From: Candidatus Aenigmatarchaeota archaeon | GTDB lineage: Archaea; Aenigmatarchaeota; Aenigmatarchaeia; Aenigmatarchaeales; JACQIB01 | Direction of reading: 5' to 3' | Assembly: GCA_043799675.1 (NCBI GenBank) | Contig: JAZDNN010000027.1 | Coordinates: 2,589 to 66,588 of the forward strand | DNA length: 64,000 nt | In this document: in pieces, positions 4,258-63,453 of the stretch | Layout: each line of letters starts with the position of its first letter | Numbering within the stretch: position 1 is the stretch's first letter | Translations under genes and position numbers: made by a program | The notes under the pieces: generated by a model | Database searches by the model: none | The model's input: only the letters and a program-made list of their open reading frames with translations | What the model was told of the DNA's origin: nothing

Positions 4258-5970
4258 ATGTTCGAACTCCTTGACCGTGATGCCGCAGCCAGGCTCGGCA
4301 AGTGGACCGTCGGGAAGCATACCATAAGCACGCCGAACATCGCGATAGTGGTGAATCCGAACAAGATGGTGGTCTCTCCCGCAGAGCTGAAGAAGGATTT
4401 CAAAGCCGATTTGATAATCACCAACGCTTACATCATTTCGCGCTCTGCTCAGAAGGAACGGTTCGAGCAGGAAGGTCTGCACAAGGTGCTTGCATGGGAC
4501 GGGCCGATTTACACCGACAGCGGCACTTTCCAGATGTTCAGCCAGAACATCACCCCGGAGTTCGGCCCGGAAGGCACCCTGAAGTTCCAGAAGGCCATAC
4601 GCAGCGACATCATTACTCCATTGGACGTTTTCACCACCCCGAAGGACGAGCGAGGACAGGCAAAGAAGAACCTGACTGAGACAATCAAGCGCATCAAGCA
4701 GGCCAGAGGCATGATTACTGAAAATGCTTTGGTCGGCCCGATTCAGGGCGGCAGATTCCTGGATATGAGGATTGCCGCCTGCAAGCAGGTTGCCAAGCTC
4801 CAGCCCGACGTGTTTGCGATCGGGGGTATTGTCCCGTTCATGGAAAGTTACAGGTTCTCCGAGCTTGTCGACATCCTGTTGACCTGCAAGGGAAATCTGC
4901 CCGCTAACACCCCGATTCACGCCTTCGGGGCGGGCCATCCGATGGTTTTTGGGTTGCTTGCGGCCTTCGGTGCCGATGTTTTCGACAGTGCGATGTACGG
5001 CCTGGCTGCTGAGAGAGGCGCTTATCTGACCGTCAGCGGCACGCTTCAGTTGGATGAGCTTGCCGAATTGCCGTGTACCTGCCCGGAGTGTGTGAACGCA
5101 AGCATAAAGGAACTCAAATCGCAACCCGTTGAAAACCGTACGAAGTTCCTGACCAGGCATAATCTCTACGTCACCATGGCCGAAATGCGCGAGGTCAGGA
5201 CTGCAATCAGGCAGGGCTGGCTCTGGGAGCTGGTTCAGCAGCGGGCAAGGGCCCATCCCGCCCTTCTTCTGGCATTCGCAAGCGGCCTGAAGAAGCATGC
5301 AAAGCTCTTGCAGAAGCTCGACCCCGTGAGCAAGCCTTCCGCTTTCCTCTGGTCCGGCGAGGAGAGCTGGTCGCGGCCCGAAATCTTGAGGGCGCAGGAA
5401 TGGGTGCGTCGTGTCCGGGTCAAGCGTTACTTCAATCTGGAGCCGTTCGGGAAAGTGCCTGTCGGCCTGAAGTCCTGCTACCCGTTCGGCCAGTCCGTGC
5501 TGCCGAACAAGCCGCATAAGGTGAAGGCTTCTGCATCCGAAAGAGCTTTGCAGACCATCGATTATCAGTTCGGGAAGGGCGCGAGCAAGACATTCAGGAA
5601 GGTTGATATTGAAAGTTCCAGAAAGACCGGCCGCTTGAGGCGGCTCTGGACTGCCGATAAGCAGCTTCTAGGCACTTTCAGGCCCTCCGACGGCTTCTTC
5701 CTGCCTACTTTGGATGGGGCAAGGCTGCTTGGCAGGGCCATCAAGAAGGTCAAAATCAAGGATGCCGATGTAGCCGAGCTGGTTTCAGAAGGGAAGGCGG
5801 TGTTCGCCAAGTTCGCCGTGCCTTCGGCCGGGATATTGCCGAGCGAGGAAGTGGCTGTAGTCCATAACGGAAAGCTGCTGGGCGTGGGCAGGGCATTCCT
5901 GAACAGCGACGAGATGAAGCAGATGAAGCGCGGGGTCGCGGTTGAAGTTCGCACACGCCGTGAGAGTTAG
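4258..5970 (+). CDS. tgtA: archaeosine tRNA-guanine transglycosylase (ArcTGT) with a C-terminal PUA domain
   Basis: The product is 570 aa starting from ATG 4258 (MFELLDRDAAARLG...). It has the TGT TIM-barrel blocks (LIITNAY, PIQGG, FAIGG), the zinc motif CTCPEC and a PUA-like C-terminus. The track ORF start at 3889 overlaps the divergent gene and was not used. Confidence 0.9.
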   Translation: MFELLDRDAAARLGKWTVGKHTISTPNIAIVVNPNKMVVSPAELKKDFKADLIITNAYIISRSAQKERFEQEGLHKVLAWDGPIYTDSGTFQMFSQNITPEFGPEGTLKFQKAIRSDIITPLDVFTTPKDERGQAKKNLTETIKRIKQARGMITENALVGPIQGGRFLDMRIAACKQVAKLQPDVFAIGGIVPFMESYRFSELVDILLTCKGNLPANTPIHAFGAGHPMVFGLLAAFGADVFDSAMYGLAAERGAYLTVSGTLQLDELAELPCTCPECVNASIKELKSQPVENRTKFLTRHNLYVTMAEMREVRTAIRQGWLWELVQQRARAHPALLLAFASGLKKHAKLLQKLDPVSKPSAFLWSGEESWSRPEILRAQEWVRRVRVKRYFNLEPFGKVPVGLKSCYPFGQSVLPNKPHKVKASASERALQTIDYQFGKGASKTFRKVDIESSRKTGRLRRLWTADKQLLGTFRPSDGFFLPTLDGARLLGRAIKKVKIKDADVAELVSEGKAVFAKFAVPSAGILPSEEVAVVHNGKLLGVGRAFLNSDEMKQMKRGVAVEVRTRRES

Positions 5971-6073
5971 TTTTCTTTTACAACCCTGACGACAGAAAGA
6001 AGCCGTTTTACGGCTCTTCTAAACTGGAATCTTTAAATAATACTGATATAGTAACCCTTGGTTGGTAATAGAG

Positions 6074-6703
6074 ATGAGCGAGGAATTTGAAAGACGAGTT
6101 GAAGTAGTTCTACAGGGTTTAGGCTATAAGACTAATCATCCGAGGAAAGGTGTAGATTTCATTGCCGAGAAGGGTGATGTTAAAGTTGCTGTCGAAGTAA
6201 AGGAGGATACGGAACTTAAGGCCGTATTAGGAAAGGCATTGGGTCAATTACTGGCAGCAAAGACTTTGAATGAAACCTCGGAAGAGTGGCTCGTCCTGCG
6301 CCCGCAAAAGCTCTTTGAATCGCCTTATTTTGATGCTATGCGAGAGAACGGTATTAAGGTCTTCATTCTTAATGGTCAAGATTTGATCGAGGTTAAGCAG
6401 TTTTTGTCGTACAAACACGACCGAAAAATGAGGCGAGGTGTCGATAAAGATAAGCTTGTCCGTATCTGGCGTGCTTTGGAAGGTGGGGAATGGCTCCATA
6501 TAGCTGAAATCGCTCGTAGAACGGGCATCCATGAATGTACTGTCCGCTGGTATCTGAATCGACATTTGAATCAGGCCATCGACGAACAGAATGTGCTTCC
6601 GGCCGGTATCAGGCTGAGACTTGTTAGGTTGAAACAGGGAACGGACTTGGTCGGTTATATGAAAGCCAGGAAAGCAATCGAGGAAATCAAGAAGTCGAAA
6701 TAG
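6074..6703 (+). CDS. PD-(D/E)xK nuclease-like domain fused to a winged-helix DNA-binding domain
   Basis: The N-terminus has GVDFIAEKGDVKVAVEVKE (D...ExK). The C-terminus has LHIAEIARRTGIHECTVRWYLNRHL (HTH). ATG 6074 lies ~25-30 nt downstream of a TTTAAATAATA box, so the transcript looks leaderless. The gene is visibly more AT-rich than its flanks. Confidence 0.6.
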   Translation: MSEEFERRVEVVLQGLGYKTNHPRKGVDFIAEKGDVKVAVEVKEDTELKAVLGKALGQLLAAKTLNETSEEWLVLRPQKLFESPYFDAMRENGIKVFILNGQDLIEVKQFLSYKHDRKMRRGVDKDKLVRIWRALEGGEWLHIAEIARRTGIHECTVRWYLNRHLNQAIDEQNVLPAGIRLRLVRLKQGTDLVGYMKARKAIEEIKKSK

Positions 6704-7040
6704 CTTCCGCCACTATCTCCAGTTTACCGTTGTACTCCTGAAGTCTGCCTTTGACGGTCACCACGCAGGTTCCGTTGGGCGGTTGCAGTTTTGAGCCGGC
6801 AAAGGCCACCACGCTTATCTTGCCGGTGTCATCCGTCAGTGTGAAGAAGGTATGGCCTGCAGAGCTGGTCCTGATTGAGCTTGAGGTCCCGGTGACCTGC
6901 ACCTTCTGGTCCAGGATGTCCCCGTTGAGCTGGGCCACTGCCATGACGTTAGGCTGGATGCTTCCGCTGAGCAGGAACAGGAAAATCAGGCCGATTGCCG
7001 CTATAATCAGAGAGACCTTGAGTAGGGTTTCGTCCTTCAC
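6687..7040 (-). CDS. membrane-anchored OB-fold (tRNA_anti-like) protein
   Basis: The product has an N-terminal TM helix followed by VQVTGTSSSIRTSSAGHTFFTLTDDTGKISVVAF...VTVKGRLQEYNGKLEI, a typical OB-fold nucleic-acid-binding pattern. Confidence 0.65.
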   Translation of the reverse strand: MKDETLLKVSLIIAAIGLIFLFLLSGSIQPNVMAVAQLNGDILDQKVQVTGTSSSIRTSSAGHTFFTLTDDTGKISVVAFAGSKLQPPNGTCVVTVKGRLQEYNGKLEIVAEAISTS

Positions 7041-7049
7041 AGCATCACT

Positions 7050-7607
7050 TCACGAAAGCTTCACGCGATACATCGGCGTGTATACCGGCCCGTTCGGTGT
7101 CAGTTCGCTCTTGAACAGAACCACTTCATGCACGCGTACAGTGCCTATGTCGACGTCTGACTTATCTTTCAATAAGGCTATCAGCTCGGTTTTTTGCTGC
7201 CCGCCGTTTATTCTGGCCAGGGTAAGGTGTGGTGTGAACGGCCGTTCTTCGGCGCCGAAACCGGCATCCGAAAGGGCAAGTTCGACGGATTCTGCTATGG
7301 CGGAGAGCTGGTTGGCACCTTCTTTGGCTCCGAGCCAGACCACCTTGGCATACGTCAGCTGCGGGAATGCCCCTAGGCCGGTCACGTGAAGGTCAAATGC
7401 GCGGTACTGGGGCACAACGCGGTCCAGGACGGTCTTCACCCTGTTCACGTCGTCTTCATTCAGTTCACCGAGGAACTTGAGATTGTAGTGTAGGTTCTCC
7501 GGCTCGACCAGTTTTACATCGATGTCAAGCAGGTCGATGCTTTCCTGGACCTTTTCTATCCGTGTTTTCAGTCCTTCCGACACCAGAACAGCTATGAACG
7601 CGCGCAT
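7050..7607 (-). CDS. thpR: RNA 2',3'-cyclic phosphodiesterase (2H phosphoesterase, ThpR/LigT)
   Basis: The start MRAFIAV matches the family's usual N-terminus. There are two H-x-(T/S)-x type motifs (HYNLKF, HLTLAR). The length of 185 aa fits the family. Confidence 0.8.
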   Translation of the reverse strand: MRAFIAVLVSEGLKTRIEKVQESIDLLDIDVKLVEPENLHYNLKFLGELNEDDVNRVKTVLDRVVPQYRAFDLHVTGLGAFPQLTYAKVVWLGAKEGANQLSAIAESVELALSDAGFGAEERPFTPHLTLARINGGQQKTELIALLKDKSDVDIGTVRVHEVVLFKSELTPNGPVYTPMYRVKLS

Positions 7608-7699
7608 GTGAGGTATTCGGGCCACCGAAATTTAAGCCTAAAGCATTCCAATAACAACGTTATAATATAGAGTCTAATCGGCAAAGCGAAAGTTAGCCC

Positions 7700-8105
7700 A
7701 GTATAGCAACAATGTTCACGTGAACTACACGTGAACTTCACATGAACATCGCTCTTTTGGGCTCACTTATGTAAACAAATCATTAATCTTCACGTGAACT
7801 TCACGGCGTTCACGCGTGAAGGTAACGTGAACATAAACGTCCGCGTGAACAAAACGTGAACATCCCGTGAACATTTCTAATACCATTCCGTTTCCAGTTA
7901 TCTAACTATCACAAACGGCAAAAAACGCGAAAATACGACCAAGTCGGCCATCTGTTTACAGGAACCTATATTCTGAAGTATAGAAATTGCTTGGAAGCGG
8001 CAAGATGTTCACGTGAACGTCCGGAATACACTTAAATACTTGAAAGTGTGATAGATGTTCACGCAAGAACCTTCACGAAATGTTCACGCGGTTCACGTCC
8101 AGAGG
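7700..8105. promoter_or_regulatory. origin-like or operator array of inverted GTGAAC / GTTCAC boxes, including two perfect GTTCACGTGAAC palindromes
   Basis: Seven exact GTGAAC boxes lie at 7720, 7731, 7794, 7827, 7845, 7856 and 7867, mostly as CGTGAACA, and the last three spacings are 18, 11 and 11 bp. Four exact GTTCAC boxes lie at 8007, 8057, 8082 and 8091, three of them as ATGTTCACG. The 12-bp palindrome occurs at 7714-7725 and 8007-8018. The two clusters flank a ~130-bp more AT-rich core. Confidence 0.6.
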
Positions 8106-8115
8106 AAATCAAGGT

Positions 8116-9204
8116 ATGTCGTACGAAAAATGGGATTGGTCCGGGAATCCGTTCGTCCTTAAGATTGAGCCGAAGCTATTTGTGGGTTATGAGGAGCAGG
8201 TGAAGGCTCTTCTCAAGCACATCGAGGACAAGCATAAGATAGCCGTTTTAACAGGTCCTACGGGTGCAGGCAAGAGCCATACCCTCAAATGGCTGGAAAG
8301 CTTCATCGACGGTGACGTTGTTAAGTTGTATCTCACGAAGCCGCCCAAGGAGCCGGATGAGCTTGTTCGTATTTTTACCGATCATTTCGGCACCAGCCTG
8401 CTTGCACGTCTCCTGGGACGGGAACCCTCACTTTACACCCTTGCCGGCTGGATCAACGGCCGTCTCAAAGGGTACCCTTTCTTGCTGCTGGTCGATGAAG
8501 CCCACGAGACCAACCGGGATGTCCTTGAATGGATGCGGGTGCTCGTGGACCAGATAGATTCGGTCAGCATGGTTATGGCCGGCCTGCCCGGACTCGAGCA
8601 GAAAGTGAGAGATGAGCTGCCTACGTTGGACCAACGCATCACGAGCAGGGTGACGCTCACCGCCCTCACAAAGGAAGATACCCGCGCACTAATGCAGAAA
8701 CGCATCGAGGCGGTCGGAGGCCAGGGAATCAAGCCTTTCACGGATGGCGCATTGGATATGATTTACCAGAGGACCGGTGGATTCCCCAGGGAAGTCCTGA
8801 AAATGTGTGATAGATTAGTGGGTGAAGCATCCGAGAAAGGGTGGGATGTGATAGAAGCCACCAATATAACAGATATGCGTTCGATTCCCGAATCGGAAAT
8901 AAAGTCTGACGAGCCCGTGGTCACTTTCAGCCCGAAGCCGCCGAACGAGGAGCAGATAGCAAATCTTCCCTACAGGCAGAAGCAGCTCCTCGAGATGTTG
9001 AGCAAGACGGACTGGCTCACTCCCACCGCTTTGGCAGAGCAGATTGACATGGCTGCCTATACTAGCAAGTCCCACGCCATCCGTTCGGTCAACAACATCC
9101 TTCACCGGCTTATGATAGATGGGTTTGTGCAGAGGGAGAGCAGGGGAAAGGCGTTCATGTATGCTCTCACACCAAGAATGAGGACCCTGTTCGTGAAAAG
9201 TTAG
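8116..9204 (+). CDS. ORC/Cdc6-clade AAA+ ATPase (ExeA/TniB-like) with a C-terminal winged helix
   Basis: Walker A is GPTGAGKSHT and Walker B is FLLLVDEAHE. GGFPREVLKMCDRL is an ExeA-like sensor region. The C-terminal wHTH is LTPTALAEQI...ILHRLMIDGFVQRESRGKAFMYALTP. I prefer the start at ATG 8116 because 8080-8100 is occupied by repeat boxes. Confidence 0.7.
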   Translation: MSYEKWDWSGNPFVLKIEPKLFVGYEEQVKALLKHIEDKHKIAVLTGPTGAGKSHTLKWLESFIDGDVVKLYLTKPPKEPDELVRIFTDHFGTSLLARLLGREPSLYTLAGWINGRLKGYPFLLLVDEAHETNRDVLEWMRVLVDQIDSVSMVMAGLPGLEQKVRDELPTLDQRITSRVTLTALTKEDTRALMQKRIEAVGGQGIKPFTDGALDMIYQRTGGFPREVLKMCDRLVGEASEKGWDVIEATNITDMRSIPESEIKSDEPVVTFSPKPPNEEQIANLPYRQKQLLEMLSKTDWLTPTALAEQIDMAAYTSKSHAIRSVNNILHRLMIDGFVQRESRGKAFMYALTPRMRTLFVKS

Positions 9205-11956: not shown

Positions 11957-12220
11957 ATGGCAATCGAAAAGGCTAATACAAAGGAGATGCTCGGCAAGAC
12001 CATAGTTTCTGAGGAAACCGGACGCAGATACGGTGTAGTTGGCGACGTCGCCTTCATCACCGAGTCCGGCGAGCTGATGAACATCATAGTGGCCGAGCCG
12101 ACGAAGAGCGCAGCCGACCTCGGTCTGCAGGAGGACGAGAAAGGTAGAGTAATGGTCCCCTTCAGCGCGGTCAAGAGCGTGGGCGACTTCGTCATCATCA
12201 GCGAAAAGGACATCATTTGA
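11957..12220 (+). CDS. PRC-barrel domain protein
   Basis: The 87-aa product follows a GGAGGT SD at 11945. LGKTIVSEETGRRYGVVGDVAFITESGELMNIIV...VPFSAVKSVGDFVIIS is a typical PRC-barrel pattern. The longer track ORF (11126..) is antisense to a real gene. Confidence 0.75.
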   Translation: MAIEKANTKEMLGKTIVSEETGRRYGVVGDVAFITESGELMNIIVAEPTKSAADLGLQEDEKGRVMVPFSAVKSVGDFVIISEKDII

Positions 12221-12292: not shown

Positions 12293-13258
12293 TTATTCTT
12301 TCTCTTCAGGGTCGCCGAGGCCGTCGGTGTTGACGATGAACACGCATTCGCCTTCCGGTAGGTTGGGCGCGTCTATCATTCGCGCTATCCTGTTCTCCCC
12401 CTTGCTTTTCCTGAGGTAAAGCCTGATTCCGGCGAAGTGGCCCATGACATGCCCTCCTATCGGTGCCGTCGGGTCCCCGAACATCATGTCCGGCCTTGAC
12501 ATCACCTGGTTGGTCATGTAAATTGCCACCCCGTACACGTCTGCCAATCGCTGGAGTGCGTGCAGATGCCTGTTGAGCTTCTGCTGCCTCGATGCCAGCT
12601 CCCCTCTTCCGGTGTAATCCGCCCTGAACAGCGCGGTAACGCTGTCCACCACGATGAGCTTGATGTTCTTCGGCTTGATGAAATCCGCCGCCTTGTCCAC
12701 CAGTACGCACTGGTGGTCTGCGTTGTATGCTCTTGCTACGAGTATGTTTTCCAGCGCCTTCTTCGGGTCAAGTTTGACCGCCTTTGCCATCTGCTCAATC
12801 CTGCTCGGAGAGAACGTGTTCTCGGTGTCTATGAACAGGCACCCGCCAGCGGCTCCGCCCTTATCGACCGGTAGCTGGACTGTGACCGCAAACTCATGGG
12901 CGAGCTGGCTCTTTCCGGAGCCGAATCCCCCGTGGGCCTCTAGCGTCCCTCCGGTCTCAATCCCGCCGCCTATCAGGGCGTTCAGGTTCTTGCTCCGCGT
13001 GGTGATCTTTAACGCTTTCGTCCTTCTCTCAAGCACCTTGGTCGCGCTCTCAAACCCGATGTTCAGCGCATCCCTGGCCGCCTCGATGATCTTGGAAGCT
13101 GTCTGGTCCCCGAGTTCCGCGACCTCGATCAGCTCCTTCGGGCTGGCTGCGGCGACCGACATCAAATCCACGAATCCTGCGGAATCCAGCTTCGCCGCTA
13201 TCTTCTCCCCTACGCCCGGCAGGTCCGCCACCGTTTTGATTTCCTTTTTCTCAGCCAT
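12293..13258 (-). CDS. radA: DNA repair and recombination protein RadA
   Basis: The 321-aa product has an N-terminal HhH (LPGVGEKIAAKL), Walker A GGFGSGKSQ and Walker B IKLIVVDS. The start MAEKKEIK lies 2 nt after the upstream stop. Confidence 0.95.
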   Translation of the reverse strand: MAEKKEIKTVADLPGVGEKIAAKLDSAGFVDLMSVAAASPKELIEVAELGDQTASKIIEAARDALNIGFESATKVLERRTKALKITTRSKNLNALIGGGIETGGTLEAHGGFGSGKSQLAHEFAVTVQLPVDKGGAAGGCLFIDTENTFSPSRIEQMAKAVKLDPKKALENILVARAYNADHQCVLVDKAADFIKPKNIKLIVVDSVTALFRADYTGRGELASRQQKLNRHLHALQRLADVYGVAIYMTNQVMSRPDMMFGDPTAPIGGHVMGHFAGIRLYLRKSKGENRIARMIDAPNLPEGECVFIVNTDGLGDPEEKE

Positions 13259-13260
13259 GG

Positions 13261-13602
13261 TTATAGCCCCTTCGCCGCGGTCTGCATCATGATGGCTGCG
13301 ATGTCCGCCATCACGTCGGCGTCGCAGCCGGTCCAACCGGAACCATAGGGTCGGGTTAATACGAACTCGCCGCCGTCCTTCTTTGGAAATTTCACATTCA
13401 CCTTGCGGCCGGTATATACGAACTGGTCCGGGTCCGCAATTCTTACTACCATACACTCGCCTTCCTTGGCGTATGCATATGACCACGCCTCGCCGTCGGA
13501 TGGATATCTTAATTGATATCCTCTTTTTAGCAAGCCCTGCTCAAACCGGAATGCCAGCCGCTCCCCGACAGGTATTTTTGATTTTTCAGCCATGATTTTC
13601 AC
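13261..13602 (-). CDS. small uncharacterised protein, paralogue of 13909..14277 (rpa-radA operon member 3)
   Basis: The 113-aa product aligns by eye with the 122-aa ORF at RLAFRFEQGLLKRGYQLRYP / KMAYDLEQVLLNGGFERKYP, VVRIADPDQFVY / IVRLANADAFDY and DADVMADIAAIM / EIDLAATIGTVL. Confidence 0.6.
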   Translation of the reverse strand: MKIMAEKSKIPVGERLAFRFEQGLLKRGYQLRYPSDGEAWSYAYAKEGECMVVRIADPDQFVYTGRKVNVKFPKKDGGEFVLTRPYGSGWTGCDADVMADIAAIMMQTAAKGL

Positions 13603-13908: not shown

Positions 13909-14277
13909 TTATGGCCTCTTTGATATGCGATGCACCAGAACGGTCCCTATCGTTGCCGCAAGGTCAATTTCGGATGCAATCAAATGCTGGCTATTTCTCT
14001 CCGGTATGACGATATCGACCTTTGGGTTTGATTTCGAAAAACTTATGTGGGCATGGCCGCCTTCGTAGTCGAACGCGTCCGCGTTTGCCAACCTTACTAT
14101 GATAGAGTCATGCTTGACAAATCCGTATGACGTGCGTGCTTTCATGTCGGGACTGGTGGGGTATTTCCGTTCGAACCCGCCGTTGAGAAGCACCTGCTCA
14201 AGATCGTACGCCATCTTCTCACAGTCCTCTTTTTTCGGAAGTGTCAGCGTTCCCGATATATCATTGCTCATTTGCAT
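13909..14277 (-). CDS. small uncharacterised protein (rpa-radA operon member 1)
   Basis: The 122-aa ORF overlaps the rpa stop by 10 nt. It is a paralogue of 13261..13602. Confidence 0.6.
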   Translation of the reverse strand: MQMSNDISGTLTLPKKEDCEKMAYDLEQVLLNGGFERKYPTSPDMKARTSYGFVKHDSIIVRLANADAFDYEGGHAHISFSKSNPKVDIVIPERNSQHLIASEIDLAATIGTVLVHRISKRP

Positions 14278-15293
14278 GCCCCCGCATCATTGGAGGCAAA
14301 AAGATTTAAGAGCCTGTTTGACTCCTCGACAGGATCGACCTCTTTGATGTCCGTCGCAATGAATTCCAGCCGCTCGAACATCCTGTTTTTCCTGACCCTC
14401 CCCATGATAATGAGTTCCTTGCTGACCACGTCCAGGTCCTCGTACAGCTTCCCCTTTTTTGCCGCCATCTCTTCCGCGCTCATCCCCAGCAGCTTCGCAC
14501 CCATGTCCCTGAAGAACACGGCCCGGATGCTTCCCGTACCGTCGTCTATGACCCCGCTCACCACCGCCGTGAGCAGGGGTTTGACCATCCCGTGCTGCGT
14601 GCATTTCCATACGGTGGCCTCAATGCCGGGCTGTATCTCCATCTTCTCCTGCTTCAGCCTGCTCCCGTCCTCGGGACATATCTCATAGAACTGTTCCGTT
14701 TCGAACAGCTGCACCACTGAAGCTCTCACTTCCGCCATCTGCCCTTCCTTGAGTGCCATGACATCCGTCCTTGTCGGCGAGCCGTTCTGGACCTGGCTGA
14801 CATCCGGCAGGTCGCTGTTCTCCAGCAACTTCATGTGCCCGTAGCGCCCAAGCCTTATCTCGACACCTCCGCGTCCGTCATCCTTGCTGTATCCGTCCCC
14901 GATTTCAATTGCCTGCCCGGGCTGCAGTTTTTCCAGGAGGGCGGTCTGCTCGTCCCACAGCGAAAGTCTGCAGCTTGCCGTTCCGTCGCTGATTATGACG
15001 TTCGCCACCTTGCCTTTCTTTCCTTCCCTTTCGAATTCCCGCGGCTCGAACACCCTCACAATCCGTGCCTGCACCTTCAGGCTCCTTATACCGGGAACTA
15101 TGCTCTTCATTTCCACCTTGGTGTTCTGCTTGATTGTGAGGTCCAGTCCCAGTTCTTTGGCGACAATGTATGCCGCCCCCTCGCGGCTGACAAGGTTGCT
15201 CAGTTCCCGTTGCTTGTCCGCTATGCGCTTGTCAACCTCTTCTACGCTCAGCCCGGTTGCAGAAATTATCCGCGGAATGATGTCTTCGGACAT
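14268..15293 (-). CDS. rpa: replication protein A-like single-stranded DNA-binding protein
   Basis: The 341-aa product has an N-terminal helical domain (REGAAYIVAKELG) followed by OB-fold blocks (KVANVIISDGTASCRLSLWDEQ...; VSGVIDDGTGSIRAVFF), as in euryarchaeal RPA41-type proteins. Confidence 0.8.
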   Translation of the reverse strand: MSEDIIPRIISATGLSVEEVDKRIADKQRELSNLVSREGAAYIVAKELGLDLTIKQNTKVEMKSIVPGIRSLKVQARIVRVFEPREFEREGKKGKVANVIISDGTASCRLSLWDEQTALLEKLQPGQAIEIGDGYSKDDGRGGVEIRLGRYGHMKLLENSDLPDVSQVQNGSPTRTDVMALKEGQMAEVRASVVQLFETEQFYEICPEDGSRLKQEKMEIQPGIEATVWKCTQHGMVKPLLTAVVSGVIDDGTGSIRAVFFRDMGAKLLGMSAEEMAAKKGKLYEDLDVVSKELIIMGRVRKNRMFERLEFIATDIKEVDPVEESNRLLNLFASNDAGACK

Positions 15294-15369
15294 GTTAGCA
15301 CCATATGTGACGCCCTGAGGTCGTCGCTGCAACATGTCGTCGTAAGGATAAATGTATGCGGAAGTTCTC

Positions 15370-16168: not shown

Positions 16169-16333
16169 GGACAGTTGTCGCCTACTTTTTTTGCACGGGA
16201 ATCCGTTCGGCCTGTCATCCGCATCACGGGGCGAGATATATCGCCCATGCACACACCTGCCGGCACCCTTTTTTCGTTTTCACCAAGCACGGACACTTGA
16301 GATTAATCTATTTATGTCGGCTCTGCAACAGCT

Positions 16334-16681
16334 TTGATTATGAAAGAATTCCTTACCTGGCTCTATGGACGCAGCGCAAGGAATGCGCACATCCGGGGCA
16401 TGGCCGAGAAGACGATAATGCTGTTGAAGAAAGAGCCGATGGAATACCAGCAGCTGTGCCGTGCTCTTGGTATAGGCTTTGACAACTACCAGAAGCCCCG
16501 CAGGACCTTTTATTTCGTCGTTAACCCCCTGAAAGCGGTCCAATTGATCAAGGAAAAGCGGATTAAGGACCAGGTCGACCCCAAGAAGTACCAGACCTTC
16601 TATATGCTGAATCCCGGCGCGTTCCAGGGCTACATGACGCGAGCCGTTGAGGAAGCTGTCACCGGCATGCAGGCCGGCTGA
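16334..16681 (+). CDS. hypothetical protein (115 aa)
   Basis: Its composition is more plausible than that of the overlapping minus-strand ORF. I recognise no family. Confidence 0.4.
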   Translation: MIMKEFLTWLYGRSARNAHIRGMAEKTIMLLKKEPMEYQQLCRALGIGFDNYQKPRRTFYFVVNPLKAVQLIKEKRIKDQVDPKKYQTFYMLNPGAFQGYMTRAVEEAVTGMQAG

Positions 16682-16840
16682 GCCGCGTTTTCCCGTTTCC
16701 AATTCAGCGCATACTATTTGTTGCATTAGCTAGCTTTCCAGAGATATTTTTCCAAAGATAGGACGTAAGAGCTAGCACATAACGTATAGTTTTCAGTAAA
16801 CAGATGGTCCGGGAACCCAAACTAAAATGTGAGAGTTCGA

Positions 16841-16886
16841 GAAAATCCTAAGGGATTTTCGAGACGCGTGAACAGCGAGTTCACGC
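16841..16886. repeat. bipartite hairpin element, copy A
   Basis: The element reads GAAAATCC-taag-GGATTTTC, GAGAC, GCGTGAAC-agcga-GTTCACGC. The core TCGAGACGCGTGAAC...GAGTTCACGC is identical to the copy at 30516..30557. Confidence 0.6.
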
Positions 16887-16977
16887 AGTCCGTGAGGGAC
16901 GAATAGTAAATAGCCGTTTTCAATCATTTGAAAGACTTACTTAATATTTCGGATATACAAGTTACGGATGGATTGGA

Positions 16978-30515: not shown

Positions 30516-30557
30516 GAGGAACATCGTTCCTCGAGACGCGTGAACGTGAGTTCACGC
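30516..30557. repeat. bipartite hairpin element, copy B (in the P0-P1 intergenic spacer)
   Basis: The element reads GAGGAAC-atc-GTTCCTC, GAGAC, GCGTGAAC-gtga-GTTCACGC. The second hairpin and spacer are identical to copy A. The first hairpin differs in sequence but keeps its pairing. Confidence 0.6.
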
Positions 30558-30562
30558 TGTCG

Positions 30563-31423
30563 TCATGCTCCTCCGCTGGCTGCCGTAAGCGCTTCGGCCT
30601 GCGCCTTGGCCCTTGCCATCAGTTCTTCAATTATGCCCTTATCGAGTATTTCCGCTTCCATTCCCAGCGTCTTTGCTTCGCGGAATCCCTTCGCGAGCAT
30701 CGTGCCCATTGTAAGCTTGGTCGGCCAACCCGCGTTCACGGACAGGTTGAAAGCGCCCGTTATCGCTTTCATCAGGTTAGCCATCGTCTTGACATCGTCT
30801 ATCGCCAGCACGTTCTTGTCGTAGAGCGTGCCCGCCTCCCACATGCTCACGATGTCCAGCCCTATTGACATCGGTCTTATTTTCAGCATCGACAGCGCGC
30901 CTGCGAGGTCGGCAGTTATGACGTCCCCCGCCTTTGCGACACGGCTGTCCTTGGAGACGGCTATCTTGCCTCCTTCCACTTTCGCCGCAATCTTGACTTT
31001 CGTGAGCGTGCTTATCGCCGGCCCGGGCGGGATGTCCGTCGGTCCTGCCGGAACCGTGATGTCTTCTGGAGCTATGTCCCCGGCCTTGGCCGACGCGGGG
31101 CTCTTGTTCATGCTGACCGTCCTGTACAGCTTGAACGGGTTGCCGGAGCTCAGCATCACCGCCGGCTGGCTGCCCAGCAGCTTCACCAGGTCCGCCCTGC
31201 CCGCCTTCTCCAGTGCCAGGCGTAGCACGCATTTCTTGACCACCCTGATGTGCGCCTGTCCGGTCAGTGTTCCCTTTATTTTCTGCAGTGCCGAGGCCGG
31301 CATCTTATGCAGGTTGAGTATCGCTATGACGGTAGATTTGTCCATCTCGTGCGCGAGTTTCAAGACCTGCTCGGTCTTTTCCTTTCTCGGGGCCGCCCTT
31401 CCTTTCTTTATGTTTTGCTTCAT
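30563..31423 (-). CDS. rplP0: 50S ribosomal protein uL10 (P0)
   Basis: The 286-aa product has a uL10 N-terminal domain and a C-terminal stalk-helix region. It sits in the conserved uL1-uL10-P1 order. Confidence 0.9.
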   Translation of the reverse strand: MKQNIKKGRAAPRKEKTEQVLKLAHEMDKSTVIAILNLHKMPASALQKIKGTLTGQAHIRVVKKCVLRLALEKAGRADLVKLLGSQPAVMLSSGNPFKLYRTVSMNKSPASAKAGDIAPEDITVPAGPTDIPPGPAISTLTKVKIAAKVEGGKIAVSKDSRVAKAGDVITADLAGALSMLKIRPMSIGLDIVSMWEAGTLYDKNVLAIDDVKTMANLMKAITGAFNLSVNAGWPTKLTMGTMLAKGFREAKTLGMEAEILDKGIIEELMARAKAQAEALTAASGGA

Positions 31424-39547: not shown

Positions 39548-39669
39548 GCCCCTGTAGCTCAGCATGGATAGAGCGCCTGACTTCTATCTCTCGATAGAAG
39601 AGACGAGGCTTAGGCCGATGAAAGGAAGAAATCAGGAGGTCGAGGGTCCGAATCCCTTCAGGGGCGCCA
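39548..39669 (+). tRNA. tRNA-Arg(UCU) with a 44-nt intron at the canonical 37/38 position; CCA encoded
   Basis: The acceptor is GCCCCTG/CAGGGGC and the D-arm is GCTC-AGCATGGATA-GAGC. The anticodon arm is CCTGA-CTTCTA[intron]A-TCAGG and the T-arm is GAGGG-TCCGAAT-CCCTT. The discriminator is G. Confidence 0.85.
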
Positions 39670-58731: not shown

Positions 58732-61700
58732 GTGATTCCCTTGGATGCCATAAAGACCAGAACGAGCGAGAACAGCGAACAGCATCTTGAGGCCAGTGCG
58801 GCCAGGCTCGCCGAGACTTCCCCCCAGTTGAAGAAGCCGCTCGTGACCGAGAACCAACTGAAGGTGATAAAGGACAAGTATTTGCGCGACGACCCGTCGG
58901 TGGATATCTGGCTGTGGAGGGTTGCCGAAAACATCGCCCTGTCCGAACTGCTCTATGATTCTCTTGTCCCGCGCGAGGACATCCTTGCCGGAGTGAGCCA
59001 CAGGCTCGAAAAGGTGGAGGCAGGCGATGCGCGGGGGAGCGAGCGCCTGCTGCTTCATGCGGGCATCGACGATCACAACACGCGGCTGGCCAACCACCGC
59101 CGCTTCATTGCGAACCTGTACAAACTGGCAAGGGAACATCCGCACGCGAAGGCCGTGGTGAGGGAGCAGGCCCTGCATTTCTACGAGCTGATGGCCGCAT
59201 GGGACTTTTTGCCGAACTCCCCGTGCCTGATGAATGCGGGGAGGGCCTTGCAGCAGCTGAGCGCCTGTTATGTCCTGCCGATCGAGGACAGCATCGAGGG
59301 CTGGGGCGATACCGTGAAGAACACCATGATAATTCATCAATGTCTGGTTCCGGAGACGTTGGTGATGACCGACGCCGGGCTGGCCGAGCTTGGCACGGTC
59401 ACGGATAATCATCATATCCTGACCCATCTAGGTCCGAGACAAGTGTCCGCCACCTATCGCAACGGCCGCCAGCCAATTTTCAAAGTAACCACCGAGCACG
59501 GCTACGGACTTACCGGCACCGCCGAGCACAAGCTGCTTGTGATTAATGAAACGGGGCTTCCGGCATGGCGACCCATCAGCGAGCTTCGGCCCAGTGATTG
59601 GTTGATGCTGTCTACCGGCGGCTGGCACGGCGGTGTCAGAGAATTGCCGCCGTTCGAATGGAAGCCGAAGGCCGGCAGGAATCGCACGAGTTTCAAGGCC
59701 CGGGACATCAGGCTGCCCACTGAGATGAGCGAAGAGTTTGCAGAACTCATCGGCCTGTATATCGGCGACGGCAGCAACCATCGCGACGGCATCCGTTTTT
59801 CAATCGGTTTCGATGATGCCGATTTGGTCGCGCGCATAACCGAGCTGAGCAAGAAGATGTTCGGAGTGGACCCCGTGGTCTCGAAGAAAAGGGATGGCAG
59901 GTGCTACGAGGTCGCCTTGCTCAGCGTCAAGCTCAAGGCATGGATGGCTGCTATCGGGGTGACCAAGAGTTCGGCCAATGATGCCAGCATACCTGGGATT
60001 GTACGGCGGGCCGATGAGCCGGTTATTTGCGCCTTCCTGCGCGGACTGTTCAGCGCCGATGGCTGCGTGCGGCAGAAGGGATATATAACCTTGGCGACAG
60101 TCTCGCACAAGTTGCTGGACCAGGCGCAGGTTGCCCTGCTACATCTGGGCATCCCTACGCGTAATCTCCGGCTCAGCACAGGGGTGTGGCAACTCAATGT
60201 CTGCAGCCGGCGGGGATTCGAGCTGTTCAGGGAGAAGATAGGTTTCATGGCTGCGCGCAAGCAGGGGCGCTTGCTTGCGGTCGACTCCAGCAAGATTTTC
60301 ACGCGCCGGGAATACCTGCCGCGACAGATTGAGCGGCTGCGCGAGTGGTATGACGGCCTACCCAAGCATGTCAAGGCAGATATTCGGACCAATCATTTGC
60401 TGGAGTTCCAGTATCAGGGCCGCGAGCTGACCGTACAGAAGTTGCAGCTCCTAGCTGATACCTATCCTGCTGAGGCGGTAGACTGGTTCGGGGAACTCCT
60501 GGACGGCCGATTCTTCTATTCCCGAGTCCGTGCTGTGGAGCCAGCCGGAAAGGCGGACGTTATTGACCTAACGGTGCCAGGTATTCATGCCTATCTGGCC
60601 AACGGTTTCATTTCCCACAACAGCGGAGGCGGCACCGGTTTTTCCGCCGGGCGCGTGAGGCATCGGGGCGACACCGTGAAGAGCACCGCCGGGATAGCGA
60701 GCGGCGCCTTGAGTCCGTTCATCCTCATCAATCAGGCGACCGGCCTGGTCAAGCAGGGAGGGACCAGAAGGGGCGCGAACATGGGAATCCTTCCCTGGTG
60801 GCATCCTGACATCGTCGAGTTCATAGATTCCAAGCAAGAGGAGGGCAAGCTCGAGAACTTCAACATCTCGGTCGCCCTTGACGCGCGCTTCATGACGGCC
60901 GCAGAAAACGACGAGGAGGTCGACCTTGTCAGCCCGCGGACGAAGCAACCGGTAAGAAAAATCAGGGCGAAGGACCTGTTCGACAAGATAATCAACAATG
61001 CGTGGAGGACCGGCGACCCGGGCGTGATTTTCATGGACAGGATAAACGACAGCCTGAGCAACCCGACGCCCGCCTTGGGCGAGATAGAGAGCACAAATCC
61101 TTGCGTGGCCGGCGACACGCTGGTGTACACCGGTTCCGGTCTCATGACCGCAGGGGAGCTTGCCGCGAATCCGATTCCGATGTCCCTCGGCATTACGGTC
61201 GATGGCAGGATGAGCCCTGATGCCATGCTGCCGGCTAGCAACGTGTTTTGGACAGGCAGGAAGCCGGTCTACCGTCTGGTAACACAGGAAGGTTATTCGA
61301 TAAGGCTCACCGGAAACCACCGCGTGATGACCGACCGTGGATGGGTTGAGGCCAGGGACCTTATGCCGGGCGACAGGATTCATATTTTATCCAGAAAGGG
61401 CGGATTCGGCACGAAGGGCGACCTCGATACCGGTCGGATAGCTGGACACGAATCGATGGAAACAATATCAGATGACATCATTGCAGCTTCAGAGGATTTC
61501 CAGCGTGGATTCTTGCAAGTGTTATTCACGGATTGCGGACAAATCGATGAAAATGGCATCCATCTCAGAAAGACAAACGTTATACATGAACGCATACAAC
61601 AGATGCTTCTGAATTTTGGTATATATTCAATAGTAAACAAGGATGAGCTCCATATACGGACGGAACAGACTAAAGATTTCCATCGTGAAATCGGATTCTT

Positions 61701-63453
61701 GAAGGATTCCCTGATTGATCGGCTGGAAGTTTGCCTCGCCAACGGAGCGCATGTCACATCACGGGAGCATTTCACGGTCTCATTCATTGAATTGAAATCC
61801 GAAGGCGAGGAAGACGTGTTTGACCTGAGCGAGCCGCGGACCCACAGCTTCGTGGCCAACGGCTTCGTGGTCCATAACTGCGGTGAACAGCCGTTATTGC
61901 CGTTCGAGAGCTGCAACCTCGGAAGCATCAACCTGCGCAACTTCACCTCGGGAAATGATTTCGACTGGCCGCGGCTGCGCTCCGCGATGCGCACCGCCGT
62001 CCGTTTCATGGACAACTGCATCGATGTGAACAACCTTCCGCTCGAGGAGATCGAGAGCATAACCAAGGGCAACCGCAGGCTGGGCATCGGCGTGATGGGC
62101 TGGGCCGAATCGCTTTCAGCTATGGGTATACCGTACGACTCCGAGGCCGCCCTGTCGAAGGCCGAGCAGACCGCGAAGTTCCTGGAAGACGTAGCTCTTG
62201 CAGCCAGCGAGGAGCTCGCCGCTGAGCGCGGTGTTTTCCCGAACTTTGTCGGCTCGATGTATGATCCTTCAAGCCCCTATCGCAAGGATTGGGCGGTCGG
62301 CAGGCCAAGAAATTGTGCCCGTACCACCATCGCCCCGACCGGGACCATAGCCATCACCGCCGGATTGCAGGGCGGCGGGATAGAGCCGTTCTTCGCGCTC
62401 GTTTATACGCGCTACAACGCAAAGGCGCTGGACGCCCTCAAGAAGGGCGAGAAGCCCGAGGAAGGCGACGTGTTCTATGAGGTCAACCCCGTGTTCAGGA
62501 AGGTCGCCGATTCAAATGCGTTCTGGGGGATGTCCGAGGCCGATTTGTGGAAAAGGATAGTGGAGAACCACGGCTCCGTCCGCGGGATCGAAGAGATACC
62601 GGAAGCAATCCAGCGTGCGTTCGCGACCGCACATGATATCGGCGTCCCGTGGCACGTGCGCATGCAGGCGGCCTGGCAGAAGTTCACCGACAACGCCGTG
62701 AGCAAGACCATCAACATGCCGAACAGCGCGACGCCCGAGGAAGTGCGCGCCACCTACCTGCTTGCTTGGAAGACCGGCTGCAAGGGGATTACCGTTTACA
62801 GGGACGGCTGCAAGTCGCAGCAGGTCCTCAATCTGTCCGCAAAGAAGCTCGAACCGAAAATAGAAATGATGGAGCCGCAGGTAAGGCCCCGCCCCCGCCC
62901 GAAGATGATGGAAGGGAAGACCCAGGAGGTAAGGACCGGCTGCGGCGACATGTACATAACTGTCAATCGCGATGAGAAGGGTCCGTTCGAACTGTTTGCG
63001 GCCATAGGCAAGAGCGGGGGCTGTATCTCAAGTTATTCCGAAGCCGTGGCAAGGCTGGTGAGCCTTGCTCTTCGCAGCGGCGTCGACCCGAAGCAGGTGG
63101 TCAAGCAGCTCAAAGGCATACGGTGCAGCCGGCCGGTGTTCGATACCGGAGGGGTCACCTACAGCTGCGCTGATTGCATCGCCAAGGCGTTCGAGAAGGT
63201 GATAGCCGGCGACACCAGCCAGCAGGCCCATCTTGCCGTGTTTGCCGAGGAGGCGATACCGCAGCATAAGGAGGAGAACGGAAAGAACATGACTCTGGAC
63301 GGGCGGGCAATAACCCCAGTGCAGGAACCGAACCAGATGGAGCAGCTCATCAAGGCCGGCGCGAGGCCTGAGTGCCCCGAGTGCGGCGGCCCCGTCAATT
63401 TCGTTGAAGGCTGTGTCACTTGCTCCGCCTGCGGTTACAGCGCCTGCGGGTAA
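58732..63453 (+). CDS. nrdJ: class II (adenosylcobalamin-dependent) ribonucleotide reductase NrdJ, interrupted by two inteins
   Basis: The N-terminal block is TENQLKVIKDKYL. The GGGTGFS and NPCGEQPL active-site blocks are each split by an intein. The C-terminal zinc ribbon is CPECGG...CVTCSACG. The extein is ~887 aa. The start (GTG 58732) is uncertain. Confidence 0.9.
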   Translation: MIPLDAIKTRTSENSEQHLEASAARLAETSPQLKKPLVTENQLKVIKDKYLRDDPSVDIWLWRVAENIALSELLYDSLVPREDILAGVSHRLEKVEAGDARGSERLLLHAGIDDHNTRLANHRRFIANLYKLAREHPHAKAVVREQALHFYELMAAWDFLPNSPCLMNAGRALQQLSACYVLPIEDSIEGWGDTVKNTMIIHQCLVPETLVMTDAGLAELGTVTDNHHILTHLGPRQVSATYRNGRQPIFKVTTEHGYGLTGTAEHKLLVINETGLPAWRPISELRPSDWLMLSTGGWHGGVRELPPFEWKPKAGRNRTSFKARDIRLPTEMSEEFAELIGLYIGDGSNHRDGIRFSIGFDDADLVARITELSKKMFGVDPVVSKKRDGRCYEVALLSVKLKAWMAAIGVTKSSANDASIPGIVRRADEPVICAFLRGLFSADGCVRQKGYITLATVSHKLLDQAQVALLHLGIPTRNLRLSTGVWQLNVCSRRGFELFREKIGFMAARKQGRLLAVDSSKIFTRREYLPRQIERLREWYDGLPKHVKADIRTNHLLEFQYQGRELTVQKLQLLADTYPAEAVDWFGELLDGRFFYSRVRAVEPAGKADVIDLTVPGIHAYLANGFISHNSGGGTGFSAGRVRHRGDTVKSTAGIASGALSPFILINQATGLVKQGGTRRGANMGILPWWHPDIVEFIDSKQEEGKLENFNISVALDARFMTAAENDEEVDLVSPRTKQPVRKIRAKDLFDKIINNAWRTGDPGVIFMDRINDSLSNPTPALGEIESTNPCVAGDTLVYTGSGLMTAGELAANPIPMSLGITVDGRMSPDAMLPASNVFWTGRKPVYRLVTQEGYSIRLTGNHRVMTDRGWVEARDLMPGDRIHILSRKGGFGTKGDLDTGRIAGHESMETISDDIIAASEDFQRGFLQVLFTDCGQIDENGIHLRKTNVIHERIQQMLLNFGIYSIVNKDELHIRTEQTKDFHREIGFLKDSLIDRLEVCLANGAHVTSREHFTVSFIELKSEGEEDVFDLSEPRTHSFVANGFVVHNCGEQPLLPFESCNLGSINLRNFTSGNDFDWPRLRSAMRTAVRFMDNCIDVNNLPLEEIESITKGNRRLGIGVMGWAESLSAMGIPYDSEAALSKAEQTAKFLEDVALAASEELAAERGVFPNFVGSMYDPSSPYRKDWAVGRPRNCARTTIAPTGTIAITAGLQGGGIEPFFALVYTRYNAKALDALKKGEKPEEGDVFYEVNPVFRKVADSNAFWGMSEADLWKRIVENHGSVRGIEEIPEAIQRAFATAHDIGVPWHVRMQAAWQKFTDNAVSKTINMPNSATPEEVRATYLLAWKTGCKGITVYRDGCKSQQVLNLSAKKLEPKIEMMEPQVRPRPRPKMMEGKTQEVRTGCGDMYITVNRDEKGPFELFAAIGKSGGCISSYSEAVARLVSLALRSGVDPKQVVKQLKGIRCSRPVFDTGGVTYSCADCIAKAFEKVIAGDTSQQAHLAVFAEEAIPQHKEENGKNMTLDGRAITPVQEPNQMEQLIKAGARPECPECGGPVNFVEGCVTCSACGYSACG
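59341..60621 (+). mobile_element. intein 1 (427 aa) with a LAGLIDADG homing-endonuclease domain
   Basis: It starts with Cys (CLVPETLV) immediately after ...TMIIHQ and ends ...NGFISHN, followed by the +1 Ser of SGGGTG. The internal LAGLIDADG motifs are LIGLYIGDGSN and LRGLFSADGCV. Confidence 0.85.
61102..61878 (+). mobile_element. intein 2 (259 aa) with a reduced or degenerate endonuclease region
   Basis: It starts CVAGDTLV after ...IESTNP and ends ...NGFVVHN, followed by the +1 Cys of CGEQPL. I see only one LAGLIDADG-like remnant (FLQVLFTDCGQI). Confidence 0.8.

Follow-up and report, generated by a model that had tools for sequence, protein, structure and literature searches.

A phased array of GTGAAC boxes beside the gene of an ExeA/MuB-type winged-helix ATPase in Aenigmatarchaeota: a conserved site of probable protein–DNA assembly with a possible role at an auxiliary origin

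At oriC of Escherichia coli the low-affinity sites are phased at ~11 bp, share one orientation and form two opposed arrays, while in the type II and type III plasmid centromeres (R1 parC/ParR, tubC/TubR) two blocks of ~11-bp iterons bracket the promoter of the operon, and binding builds the complex and auto-represses the operon. Among archaea, the extra origin oriC3 has its own non-Orc1 initiator, WhiP, encoded adjacent to it. Archaeal replication and segregation are known from a handful of cultivated lineages, with the DPANN archaea essentially unexplored. Here we describe an array of GTGAAC boxes, and the gene of an AAA+ winged-helix ATPase directly downstream of it, in a stretch of 64,000 nucleotides from a Candidatus Aenigmatarchaeota archaeon (contig JAZDNN010000027.1; this whole stretch is called the window, and positions are counted from its first letter). 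The array (7714–8097) is real, conserved and previously undescribed, and is probably a protein–DNA assembly site. We read it as an iteron-type site on which the downstream ATPase itself would assemble, and we lean tentatively towards an Orc1-independent auxiliary origin or initiation-control site; the reading as a whole, at a probability of roughly 40%, stands below even odds. What is new here is an initiator-like or centromere-like module of ‘DNA-binding NTPase plus cognate array’ in which the ATPase is of ExeA/MuB type and which exists alongside a standard Orc1 origin. Full-text literature searches on the ATPase family, on Orc1/Cdc6 or origins in Aenigmatarchaeota, and on ExeA-like winged-helix/COG3267 proteins in archaea found no description of it.

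A sequence-only reading of this locus had listed seven GTGAAC boxes, four GTTCAC boxes and two copies of a 12-bp palindrome upstream of the gene, and all of these are present as listed. The non-coding gap is organized as follows:

7626–7713, no strand assigned: distal AT-rich edge (35% GC) with a conserved TTTAAG/TATA-like block and the palindrome ATAAC-AAC-GTTAT (7652–7664), a separate, putative regulatory element distinct from the GTGAA boxes
7714–7749, no strand assigned: box cluster A, with an exact GTTCACGTGAAC (7714–7725), CGTGAAC 11 bp further on (7730) and the imperfect palindrome CTTCACATGAAC
7788–7872, no strand assigned: box cluster B, with the near-palindrome CTTCACGTGAAC (7788), TTCAC at 7800 and 7809, GTGAAG at 7816 and CGTGAAC at 7826, 7844, 7855 and 7866
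7873–8006, no strand assigned: spacer of 134 bp, in which one degenerate box, ATCACAAAC, and the conserved block ATATATTC are found
8007–8018, no strand assigned: second exact palindrome GTTCACGTGAAC, ~15 bp upstream of a TATA-like block
8031–8043, plus strand: invariant CTTAAATACTTGA block, identical in the window and in two relatives (L088 and L090)
8053–8097, minus strand: box cluster D, with GTTCAC at 8057, 8082 and 8091 and CTTCAC at 8071, in the orientation opposite to cluster B

On the plus strand GTGAAC starts at 7720, 7731, 7794, 7827, 7845, 7856 and 7867, with four of the seven boxes reading CGTGAACA and the final three (7845, 7856, 7867) spaced by 11 bp; the CGTGAAC copies of cluster B at 7844, 7855 and 7866 are accordingly all on the plus strand and exactly 11 bp apart. 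GTTCAC starts at 8007, 8057, 8082 and 8091, three of these four reading ATGTTCACG. The 12-mer GTTCACGTGAAC has just two exact copies, at 7714 and 8007, and a third copy at 7788 differs by one mismatch (~0.13 expected by chance). The enrichment is genuine: CGTGAAC is found 30 times in the window against 7.8 ± 2.9 in shuffled sequences, none of which reached 30, and 14 of the 30 copies fall within 7714–8097. Likewise the five-nucleotide core GTGAA/TTCAC gives 19 boxes in 7715–8096, where 1.1 per 400 bp are expected and the maximum elsewhere in the window is five.

The picture of two inverted clusters around an AT-rich core survives in part. Two opposed blocks do flank a spacer, but each cluster also holds boxes of the other orientation (GTTCAC at 7714 and 7808, GTGAAC at 8013), so that the clusters are of mixed orientation. 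The spacer (38.8% GC) is richer in AT than its surroundings, but only modestly so, given 44–45% in the box clusters, 54.6% in the window and a median of 50% in intergenic gaps; no strong unwinding element is evident in it, and its sequence and length vary among close relatives. The gap itself had been given as 455 bp, which fits an in-frame ATG at 8080 that some gene callers use (P0001, 374 aa) and that falls within the boxes; counted to the start codon at 8116, which is preceded by AGAGGAAAT, the gap is 490 bp (7626–8115). In the relative L088 an indel immediately ahead of the start codon speaks against coding sequence upstream of 8116.

When the gap is aligned with that of two relatives (80–82% protein identity), all boxes are kept, as is a TTAAATACTTGA block between the 8007 palindrome and the boxes at 8053–8097, while the spacer shows substitutions and indels. 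Each box of cluster A is also kept in L088 and L090. By archaeal promoter rules the CTTAAATACTTGA block is a putative B recognition element/TATA box of the ATPase promoter, and cluster D sits between this putative TATA box and the start codon. Structured RNA is not indicated in the 5′ leader, which folds no better than shuffled sequences (z = −0.16) and contains no Rfam match.

The array is a property of the ATPase family across the phylum. The family comprises more than 400 proteins, of which the top 120 are mostly ~360 aa long (347–413) and 56–99% identical, with the organism-named entries among these 120 labelled Aenigmarchaeota; at least 113 GTDB species genomes encode the ATPase. We compared loci of 10–21 kb, of which 75, from different Aenigmatarchaeota species, had enough upstream sequence to be usable. 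In 69 of the 75, GTGAA/TTCAC density over the whole locus peaks between −1200 and +100 relative to the ortholog start, and 61 of these loci reach at least 10 boxes per 400 bp (maximum 33); the median, 18, is 4.75 times the second peak. The association holds at genomic GC contents of 25–52%. Of the copies of the motif TCACGTGA, 213 fall inside the arrays, against 19 in the other 1.3 Mb. Same-orientation boxes are most often spaced by 11 bp (351 cases), with harmonics at 21–22 and 31–32 bp, and the commonest offset between opposite orientations, +5 (194 cases), corresponds to the palindrome TTCACGTGAA. This gives the 11-mer TTCACGTGAAC as the repeating unit. Several loci have plus-strand boxes in one run and, facing them across a gap of ~60–140 bp, minus-strand boxes in another; in most mapped loci the boxes come within 13–63 bp of the start codon, and mapped arrays hold 18–39 phased sites over 300–600 bp. 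Hardly any variation is seen within the phylum in either the recognition helix of the protein or the GTGAA core. The size of the array evolves quickly, as judged from recent tandem duplications in two loci: a perfect 125-nt repeat (L085, 1247–1371 and 1529–1653) and a 79-nt repeat at 91% identity (L038, 9533–9611 and 9707–9785).

A few loci carry features of their own. In L089, whose ATPase is 75% identical, a 243-aa LAGLIDADG_1 open reading frame (ORF; 4273–5004) lies between array and ATPase gene and ends at the ATPase start codon. Locus L018 (JBHIEE010000119.1) is labelled ‘Candidatus Aminicenantia bacterium’, and its ATPase tail, k-mer profile and array position equal those of the Aenigmatarchaeota locus L017, which suggests a mistake in binning or labelling. 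Nanoarchaeota, Nanohaloarchaea or Bathyarchaeota are given as the source of a few further loci.

Set beside the systems introduced above, the module works like bacterial DnaA and its oriC in that an AAA+ protein with a C-terminal helix–turn–helix is encoded beside clustered short boxes, its promoter would be auto-repressed through those boxes (here a proposal), the box and the recognition helix are conserved phylum-wide, and same-orientation boxes are phased at ~11 bp in two opposed arrays. Homology to DnaA is limited to the AAA+ fold, however, the host is an archaeon with Orc1/MCM, and no equivalent of a DNA-unwinding element (DUE) or DnaA-trio was identified at the array. With iteron plasmids the module shares helically phased direct repeats and palindromes over the promoter of the binder gene, a winged-helix DNA-binding domain and expansion by duplication; in contrast, iteron Rep proteins have no AAA+ module, and the present one is chromosomal, vertically inherited and single-copy in all loci examined. 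Phased direct repeats together with inverted repeats at the promoter of the presumed binder gene, the hallmark of iterons and centromeres alike, are found here, but unlike the binders of type II and type III centromeres the present one carries its own AAA+ ATPase, and no actin- or tubulin-like motor is linked to it. The Sulfolobus protein Orc1-2 offers a precedent for an archaeal AAA+ winged-helix protein that acts as regulator rather than initiator (PMC9738581); it differs in being a true Orc1 paralog with dispersed promoter sites, just as WhiP differs in lacking an ATPase, and neither has a phased array of 20–40 sites.

The predicted domains and motifs of the ATPase are:

8116–9204, plus strand: the ATPase gene, 362 aa, an ExeA/MuB-type AAA+ module followed by a winged helix (from Pfam/NCBIfam, hhalign, AlphaFold and alignment)
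8254–8277, plus strand: Walker A motif, GPTGAGKS
~8479–8508, plus strand: Walker B motif, VDEAHE
~8629–8649, plus strand: arginine-finger region, DQRITSR
8776–8793, plus strand: sensor 2, GGFPRE
8878–8946, plus strand: linker (residues ~255–277), predicted to be disordered, with the conserved linear motif (E)PVVTF-PKPP
8947–9201, plus strand: C-terminal winged helix–turn–helix (wHTH) of BlaI/MarR type, whose recognition helix (HAIRSVNNIL) and wing (RGKAFMYAL) hardly vary within the phylum

The sequence-only reading had called this protein ExeA/TniB-like rather than canonical Orc1/Cdc6, and the profile, fold and winged-helix results bear this out. Among Pfam models AAA_22 alone matches (6.5e-15), the best NCBIfam match is the ExeA-like TIGR03015 (2.3e-25, far below the equivalog cut-off), and the Orc1/Cdc6 models (TIGR02928; Cdc6 lid PF22703/PF22606) find no match in Pfam or NCBIfam. 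A profile of 25 orthologs was compared by hhalign with bona fide ExeA/GspA-type proteins, giving a probability of 99.95% (E = 1.8e-37, 265 columns, residues 3–269), and with a canonical Orc1/Cdc6 alignment, giving 7.3% (E = 0.005). Membership in the canonical Orc1/Cdc6 family is ruled out by these Pfam/NCBIfam and hhalign results. PHROG 296, the MuB-type transposition ATPase family, also matches (2.7e-20), and a sequence search of solved structures with the ATPase returned no match.

The AlphaFold2 (AF2) model, with a predicted local distance difference test score (pLDDT) of 81.8, has an AAA+ base and lid, a disordered linker (255–273) and a winged helix (278–361); in its secondary structure three helices (82–91, 95–100 and 109–117) lie between strands 69–73 and 122–126, to be set beside the helical insertion (initiator-specific motif) that Orc1/Cdc6 initiators have between beta-2 and beta-3 of the AAA+ core. 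Over the full length the model is best matched by Foldseek to archaeal Orc1/Cdc6 (1w5t, 2qby, 2v1u) and eukaryotic ORC1/Cdc6, the top matches (1w5t, 7jgr, 2qby, 2v1u) having E-values of ~1e-11 to 1e-9 and template modelling (TM) scores of ~0.5. The ATPase part superposes best on the ATP–DNA–MuB filament (8xvb_A; TMt 0.72, root mean square deviation 4.6 Å). The Cdc6-type winged helix PF09079 is absent, and the C-terminal domain gives weak BlaI/MarR/TrmB-type matches, that of one ortholog (L083) matching PF03965 at 5.8e-8. Orthologs show little or no variation in Walker A, Walker B, DQRIT(T/S)R, GGFPRE, HA(I/V)RS(V/I)NNIL and the wing. In the linker, where pLDDT is below 50 at residues 255–273, F271, P273, P275 and P276 are invariant, and the conserved VTF-PKPP motif may be a candidate partner-docking peptide.

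The ATPase is thus ORC-like in architecture and ExeA-like in descent. It resembles archaeal Orc1/Cdc6 and its oriC, with origin recognition boxes (ORBs), in combining AAA+ with a C-terminal winged helix, in abutting its presumed sites, in having opposed blocks around an AT-richer spacer, and in its best full-length predicted fold matches (1w5t, 2qby, 2v1u); it differs in being an ExeA-family ATPase without the Cdc6 lid/winged-helix domain (WHD) Pfam domains or TIGR02928, in having boxes that are not ORBs, in far more numerous sites at 11-bp phasing, and in coexisting with a genuine Orc1–ORB origin in the phylum. ExeA/GspA, MuB and TniB (AAA_22, COG3267) align with it over residues 3–269, including the N-terminal ‘G-x-x-E-x-PF ... 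DP’ motif, and MuB is further linked by the PHROG 296 match and the superposition on the MuB–ATP–DNA filament. Unlike ExeA/GspA, the protein lacks a transmembrane segment and a peptidoglycan-binding domain, and its setting is not one of type II secretion; unlike MuB and TniB, it has no transposase partner or mobile context here; and where all three have their C-terminal part it has a winged helix, predicted to be sequence-specific, together with a dedicated array of sites. Outside the family the module is most closely related (E ~1e-50) to uncharacterised proteins (P0160, P0168, P0172, P0175) in which TPR repeats and a zinc ribbon precede the ExeA-like module, and PG_binding_1 is found only in distant bacterial relatives such as P0248.

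How such a protein might use its array can be sketched. The winged helix would read the GTGAA core, as dimers on the TTCACGTGAA palindromes and as single protomers on half-sites, and the ATP-bound AAA+ modules would line up head-to-tail on one side of the double helix, in the manner of MuB, DnaA and ORC-class ATPases; such stacking is possible because same-orientation boxes recur every 11 bp, that is, every helical turn. Blocks B and D would each carry a filament, the two running in opposite directions, and the outcome would be one large nucleoprotein complex at a unique chromosomal address. The assembled complex would also repress the ATPase's own promoter, since boxes lie on both sides of the putative TATA box and take up the 5′ leader. 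That the ATPase binds its own array and regulates itself is, on the sequence evidence, probable. A role as auxiliary origin and initiator, by the logic of DnaA and iterons, is by analogy a good deal more tentative, and we hold it possible rather than probable that this is a second, Orc1-independent initiator system in which an ExeA/MuB-derived AAA+ winged-helix protein polymerises on the array and fires or licenses an auxiliary origin. The combination of AAA+, DNA-binding domain and box array, which is the design of DnaA and Orc1, the conservation of box and helix, and the replication and recombination genes nearby would favour an initiator.

Several observations weigh against this reading. 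The pairing of protein and boxes is drawn from adjacency and co-conservation, and we looked for covariation between recognition helix and box specificity and could demonstrate none, since variation in either partner is minimal; where a clade has an H-to-N or S-to-A/G change, its array is simply weak. Some 10–20% of loci have a weak array or none, in the L082 lineage the array has shrunk to the size of an operator (~6 boxes around TATA-like elements of the promoter), and remote full-length homologs in Asgard archaea (Lokiarchaeia) and Jingweiarchaeum lack adjacent arrays. In four loci (L038 and L083–L085) the array lies ~2–5 kb from canonical oriC, which would be odd for an independent second origin. 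No sustained AT tract or clear unwinding element was found in or beside the arrays of high-GC genomes. Finally, skew was checked, and neither the window nor 49 loci show an origin-type, negative-to-positive switch of GC skew or gene orientation at the array, the trend being if anything the opposite; we give skew and gene orientation little weight because at such a scale canonical oriC loci behave just as erratically by this measure.

If the pair is an initiator with its origin, it would represent a convergent reinvention of DnaA-style logic in archaea, and a third independently evolved design of AAA+, DNA-binding domain and box array beside DnaA and Orc1/Cdc6. Whichever role applies, its presence in at least 113 species-level genomes, conservation at the level of Orc1 and a box and recognition helix that stay the same at GC contents of 25–55% point to core chromosome biology. 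The 11-bp unit and a soluble protein of 41 kDa make in vitro testing possible without culture, and the array is a practical landmark by which to orient assemblies of Aenigmatarchaeota.

One alternative to an assembly with a function of its own, and a close rival to it, is a pure auto-regulatory or titration operator, in which the boxes only set the level of an ATPase whose job is elsewhere; an auto-regulated operator had also been among the options of the sequence-only reading. The overlap of the boxes with the putative TATA box and 5′ leader is what such an operator would look like, the handful of boxes flanking TATA-like elements in L082 and a small repeat beside the start of the Jingweiarchaeum homolog point the same way, and AAA+ winged-helix proteins can indeed regulate, as Sulfolobus Orc1-2 does (PMC9738581). 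We nonetheless consider it quite unlikely: the number of phased sites per mapped array far exceeds the needs of repression, the arrays are kept across the phylum despite large shifts in GC content, and no other targets were found in the 1.3 Mb of flanks or the 64-kb window. A local regulon was also considered and set aside, as boxes are virtually absent outside the arrays in these same sequences. Moreover, the ATPase is conserved at the level of core replication proteins (57–82% identical within the phylum, against 55–63% for canonical Orc1), and core machinery therefore fits it better than a transcription factor.

The sequence-only reading had favoured an archaeal oriC with ORBs beside its initiator gene. 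In its strongest form this would make the array the primary chromosomal origin, with a non-canonical initiator in place of Orc1/Cdc6, and the gene-plus-array geometry, the predicted full-length ORC-like fold and the lack of orc1 in the 64-kb window would all fit. However, canonical orc1/cdc6 genes, looked for elsewhere in the phylum, are present in relatives with classical origins directly upstream, an outcome that the sequence-only reading itself had named as counting against an origin. A Haloferax Orc query detects one in L038 (E = 1.9e-62), and the homologs of this protein, 55–63% identical and equipped with Cdc6 lid and WHD, are widespread, many of them being named ‘ORC1-type DNA replication protein’ from Candidatus Aenigmatarchaeota; a phylum without Orc1 is thereby ruled out. 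Downstream of orc1 comes GINS, or else a DP1-like gene and PolB. Directly upstream of orc1, inverted ORB-like elements (TTCCA/TTCTA-N3-GGAAA-N4-6-GGGG; for example TTCTAAAGGAAATTAGGGGGT in L082) flank an AT-rich stretch in the textbook order ORB–DUE–ORB, and we place candidate oriC regions at L082:9820–9950, L085:2740–3125, L086:9740–9900, L087:9685–9825 and L038:4900–5070, the ORB-like elements being clear in L082 and L085–L087 and less so in L038. The array boxes read (T)TCACGTGAA and contain no canonical ORB or mini-ORB. With a match to Orc1/Cdc6 of only 7% in hhalign and no skew switch at the array, a primary origin is very improbable and largely refuted; the array is not the primary oriC, and relatives build their origin elsewhere with ordinary Orc1/Cdc6. 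From these relatives we infer an orc1 in the window's own genome as well. The two systems are seldom close: orc1 lies within 10 kb of the ATPase gene in only 1–2 of 80 genome loci, and in five loci, from three lineages, the module is 0.5–5 kb from orc1/oriC, next to GINS or PolB genes.

The neighbourhood of the module in the window is as follows:

6062–6703, plus strand: Mrr_cat-like domain fused to a small wHTH, 213 aa (in 62 other loci a stand-alone wHTH of 93–119 aa)
6687–7040, minus strand: OB-fold protein with an apparently hydrophobic N-terminus, possibly a membrane anchor (conserved neighbour, 63 loci)
7050–7625, minus strand: LigT, a 2′-5′ RNA ligase-like phosphoesterase, divergent from the ATPase gene (conserved upstream neighbour, 67 of 81 loci)
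11960–12220, plus strand: PRC-barrel protein, 86 aa (downstream neighbour on the same strand, 53 loci)
12293–13486, minus strand: RadA recombinase, ORF as listed (conserved neighbour, 64 loci)
14268–15335, minus strand: RPA-like single-strand DNA-binding protein (conserved neighbour, 61 loci)

In 29 loci DnaG is also found ~5.7 kb upstream of the module. This setting bears on a further suggestion of the sequence-only reading, that the array is the origin of an integrated element. Iteron-like repeats adjoining the gene of a DNA-binding ATPase, with an Mrr-like nuclease domain nearby, are what an integrated plasmid or virus might bring along for its replication or partition, but this origin is scarcely credible here, being refuted by the conserved synteny: LigT, OB-fold, RadA, RPA and PRC genes flank the module in 53–67 of 81 loci, and we conclude from the conservation of LigT, RadA and RPA as housekeeping synteny (60+ genomes) that this is not an integrated element. 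Its gene content (PmbA/TldD, TGT, RadA, RPA, six aminoacyl-tRNA synthetase genes, FtsZ, Topo VI and an intein-bearing ribonucleotide reductase) marks the window as ordinary chromosome, there is no GC anomaly, and the conserved neighbourhood holds no transposase. IMG/VR yields generic AAA_22 relatives only, none of them close, and PADLOC finds no defence systems; a mobile or defence origin gains no support from IMG/VR, PADLOC or PHROGs.

The distal edge of the gap carries a second kind of element. The window copy, ATAAC-AAC-GTTAT at 7652–7664, lies ~30–40 bp upstream of the divergent LigT gene, and in relatives TATAAC-N3-GTTATA precedes LigT and the small wHTH gene at fixed distances (~40 bp and ~140 bp, respectively) and is also found inside the AT-rich DUE of the orc1-proximal origin (loci L010, L011, L021, L025, L028–L030, L074 and L075; L038:5047, L082:9880, L085:2748–3073, L086:9836 and L087:9759). 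It may be the operator of a transcription factor, probably the small wHTH protein. We considered this palindrome as a shared mark of origins, but it is better explained as a promoter operator of LigT, the small wHTH gene and orc1, and its distribution suggests a small regulon linking orc1/oriC with the neighbourhood of the module.

These findings also bear on whether some other protein binds the GTGAA boxes, either Orc1/Cdc6 on mini-ORBs or the small wHTH protein, with the ATPase gene a mere neighbour. The TTCAC|GTGAA dyad loosely recalls the ORB dyad, and a small wHTH gene lies upstream in 63 of the 81 loci. We regard such a binder as improbable, however, because orc1-proximal origins use the different element described above (TTCCA/TTCTA-N3-GGAAA...GGGG) and GTGAA arrays never adjoin orc1, even where it is only 0.5–4 kb from the ExeA-like gene. 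The small wHTH gene, for its part, is missing from 18 loci and varies in distance and orientation, and the candidate operator upstream of its own gene makes the protein a less likely binder of GTGAA.

The remaining alternative to an initiation site is that the array is a centromere-like or chromosome-organising site, on which the ATPase would load; the partition or anchoring complex so built would mark the chromosome near the origin for segregation or for coupling to division, with auto-repression as a consequence, as in plasmid par operons. Two 11-bp-phased repeat blocks that bracket the promoter of the binder gene reproduce the layout of R1 parC/ParR and tubC/TubR, the site is unique in the sequence examined, its size changes fast through tandem duplications, and its distance of 0.5–5 kb from canonical oriC in five loci of three lineages resembles that of bacterial parS near oriC. 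On the other side, we know of no AAA+ centromere-binding protein, no ParA-, actin- (ParM) or tubulin-type (TubZ) motor gene is linked in the conserved neighbourhood, and orc1 is more than 10 kb away in most genomes. The PRC-barrel gene on the same strand downstream, in 53 loci, counts for a centromere in that its family has been implicated in archaeal division, yet most PRC neighbourhoods are unrelated to division (10.1101/2023.03.28.534520), and the adjacency may merely reflect general synteny in small genomes. We think a centromere unlikely, though nearly as likely as the initiator role; were it true, it would be the first AAA+-based one and would supply a missing segregation system.

Elsewhere in the window two near-identical hairpins of ~30 nt (TCGAGACGCGTGAAC-N4/5-GAGTTCACGC-N-GTC; 16858–16888 and 30530–30560) carry the GTGAAC core in a divergent arrangement, opposite to that of the array palindrome. 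The first lies ~95 bp upstream of an ORF at 16978 and the second just 3′ of the gene at 30563–31423, upstream of AlaRS. Possible explanations are additional binding sites, terminators and a small repeat family. The first also falls within a region of ~0.8 kb (16169–16977) that contains one GTGAAC hairpin and no ORF of at least 50 aa or Rfam match, and the last 250 bp of which form the lowest-GC gap in the window (40%). An exact-match scan of metagenome contigs with the first 53 nt of the window found no extension. The ribonucleotide reductase large subunit (58732–63453) is encoded by an ORF of 1573 aa interrupted by an intein (Intein_splicing in two stretches, LAGLIDADG_3). Finally, a 119-nt Rfam tRNA match (39548–39666; 53.9 bits), not reported by ARAGORN, is probably an intron-containing archaeal tRNA.

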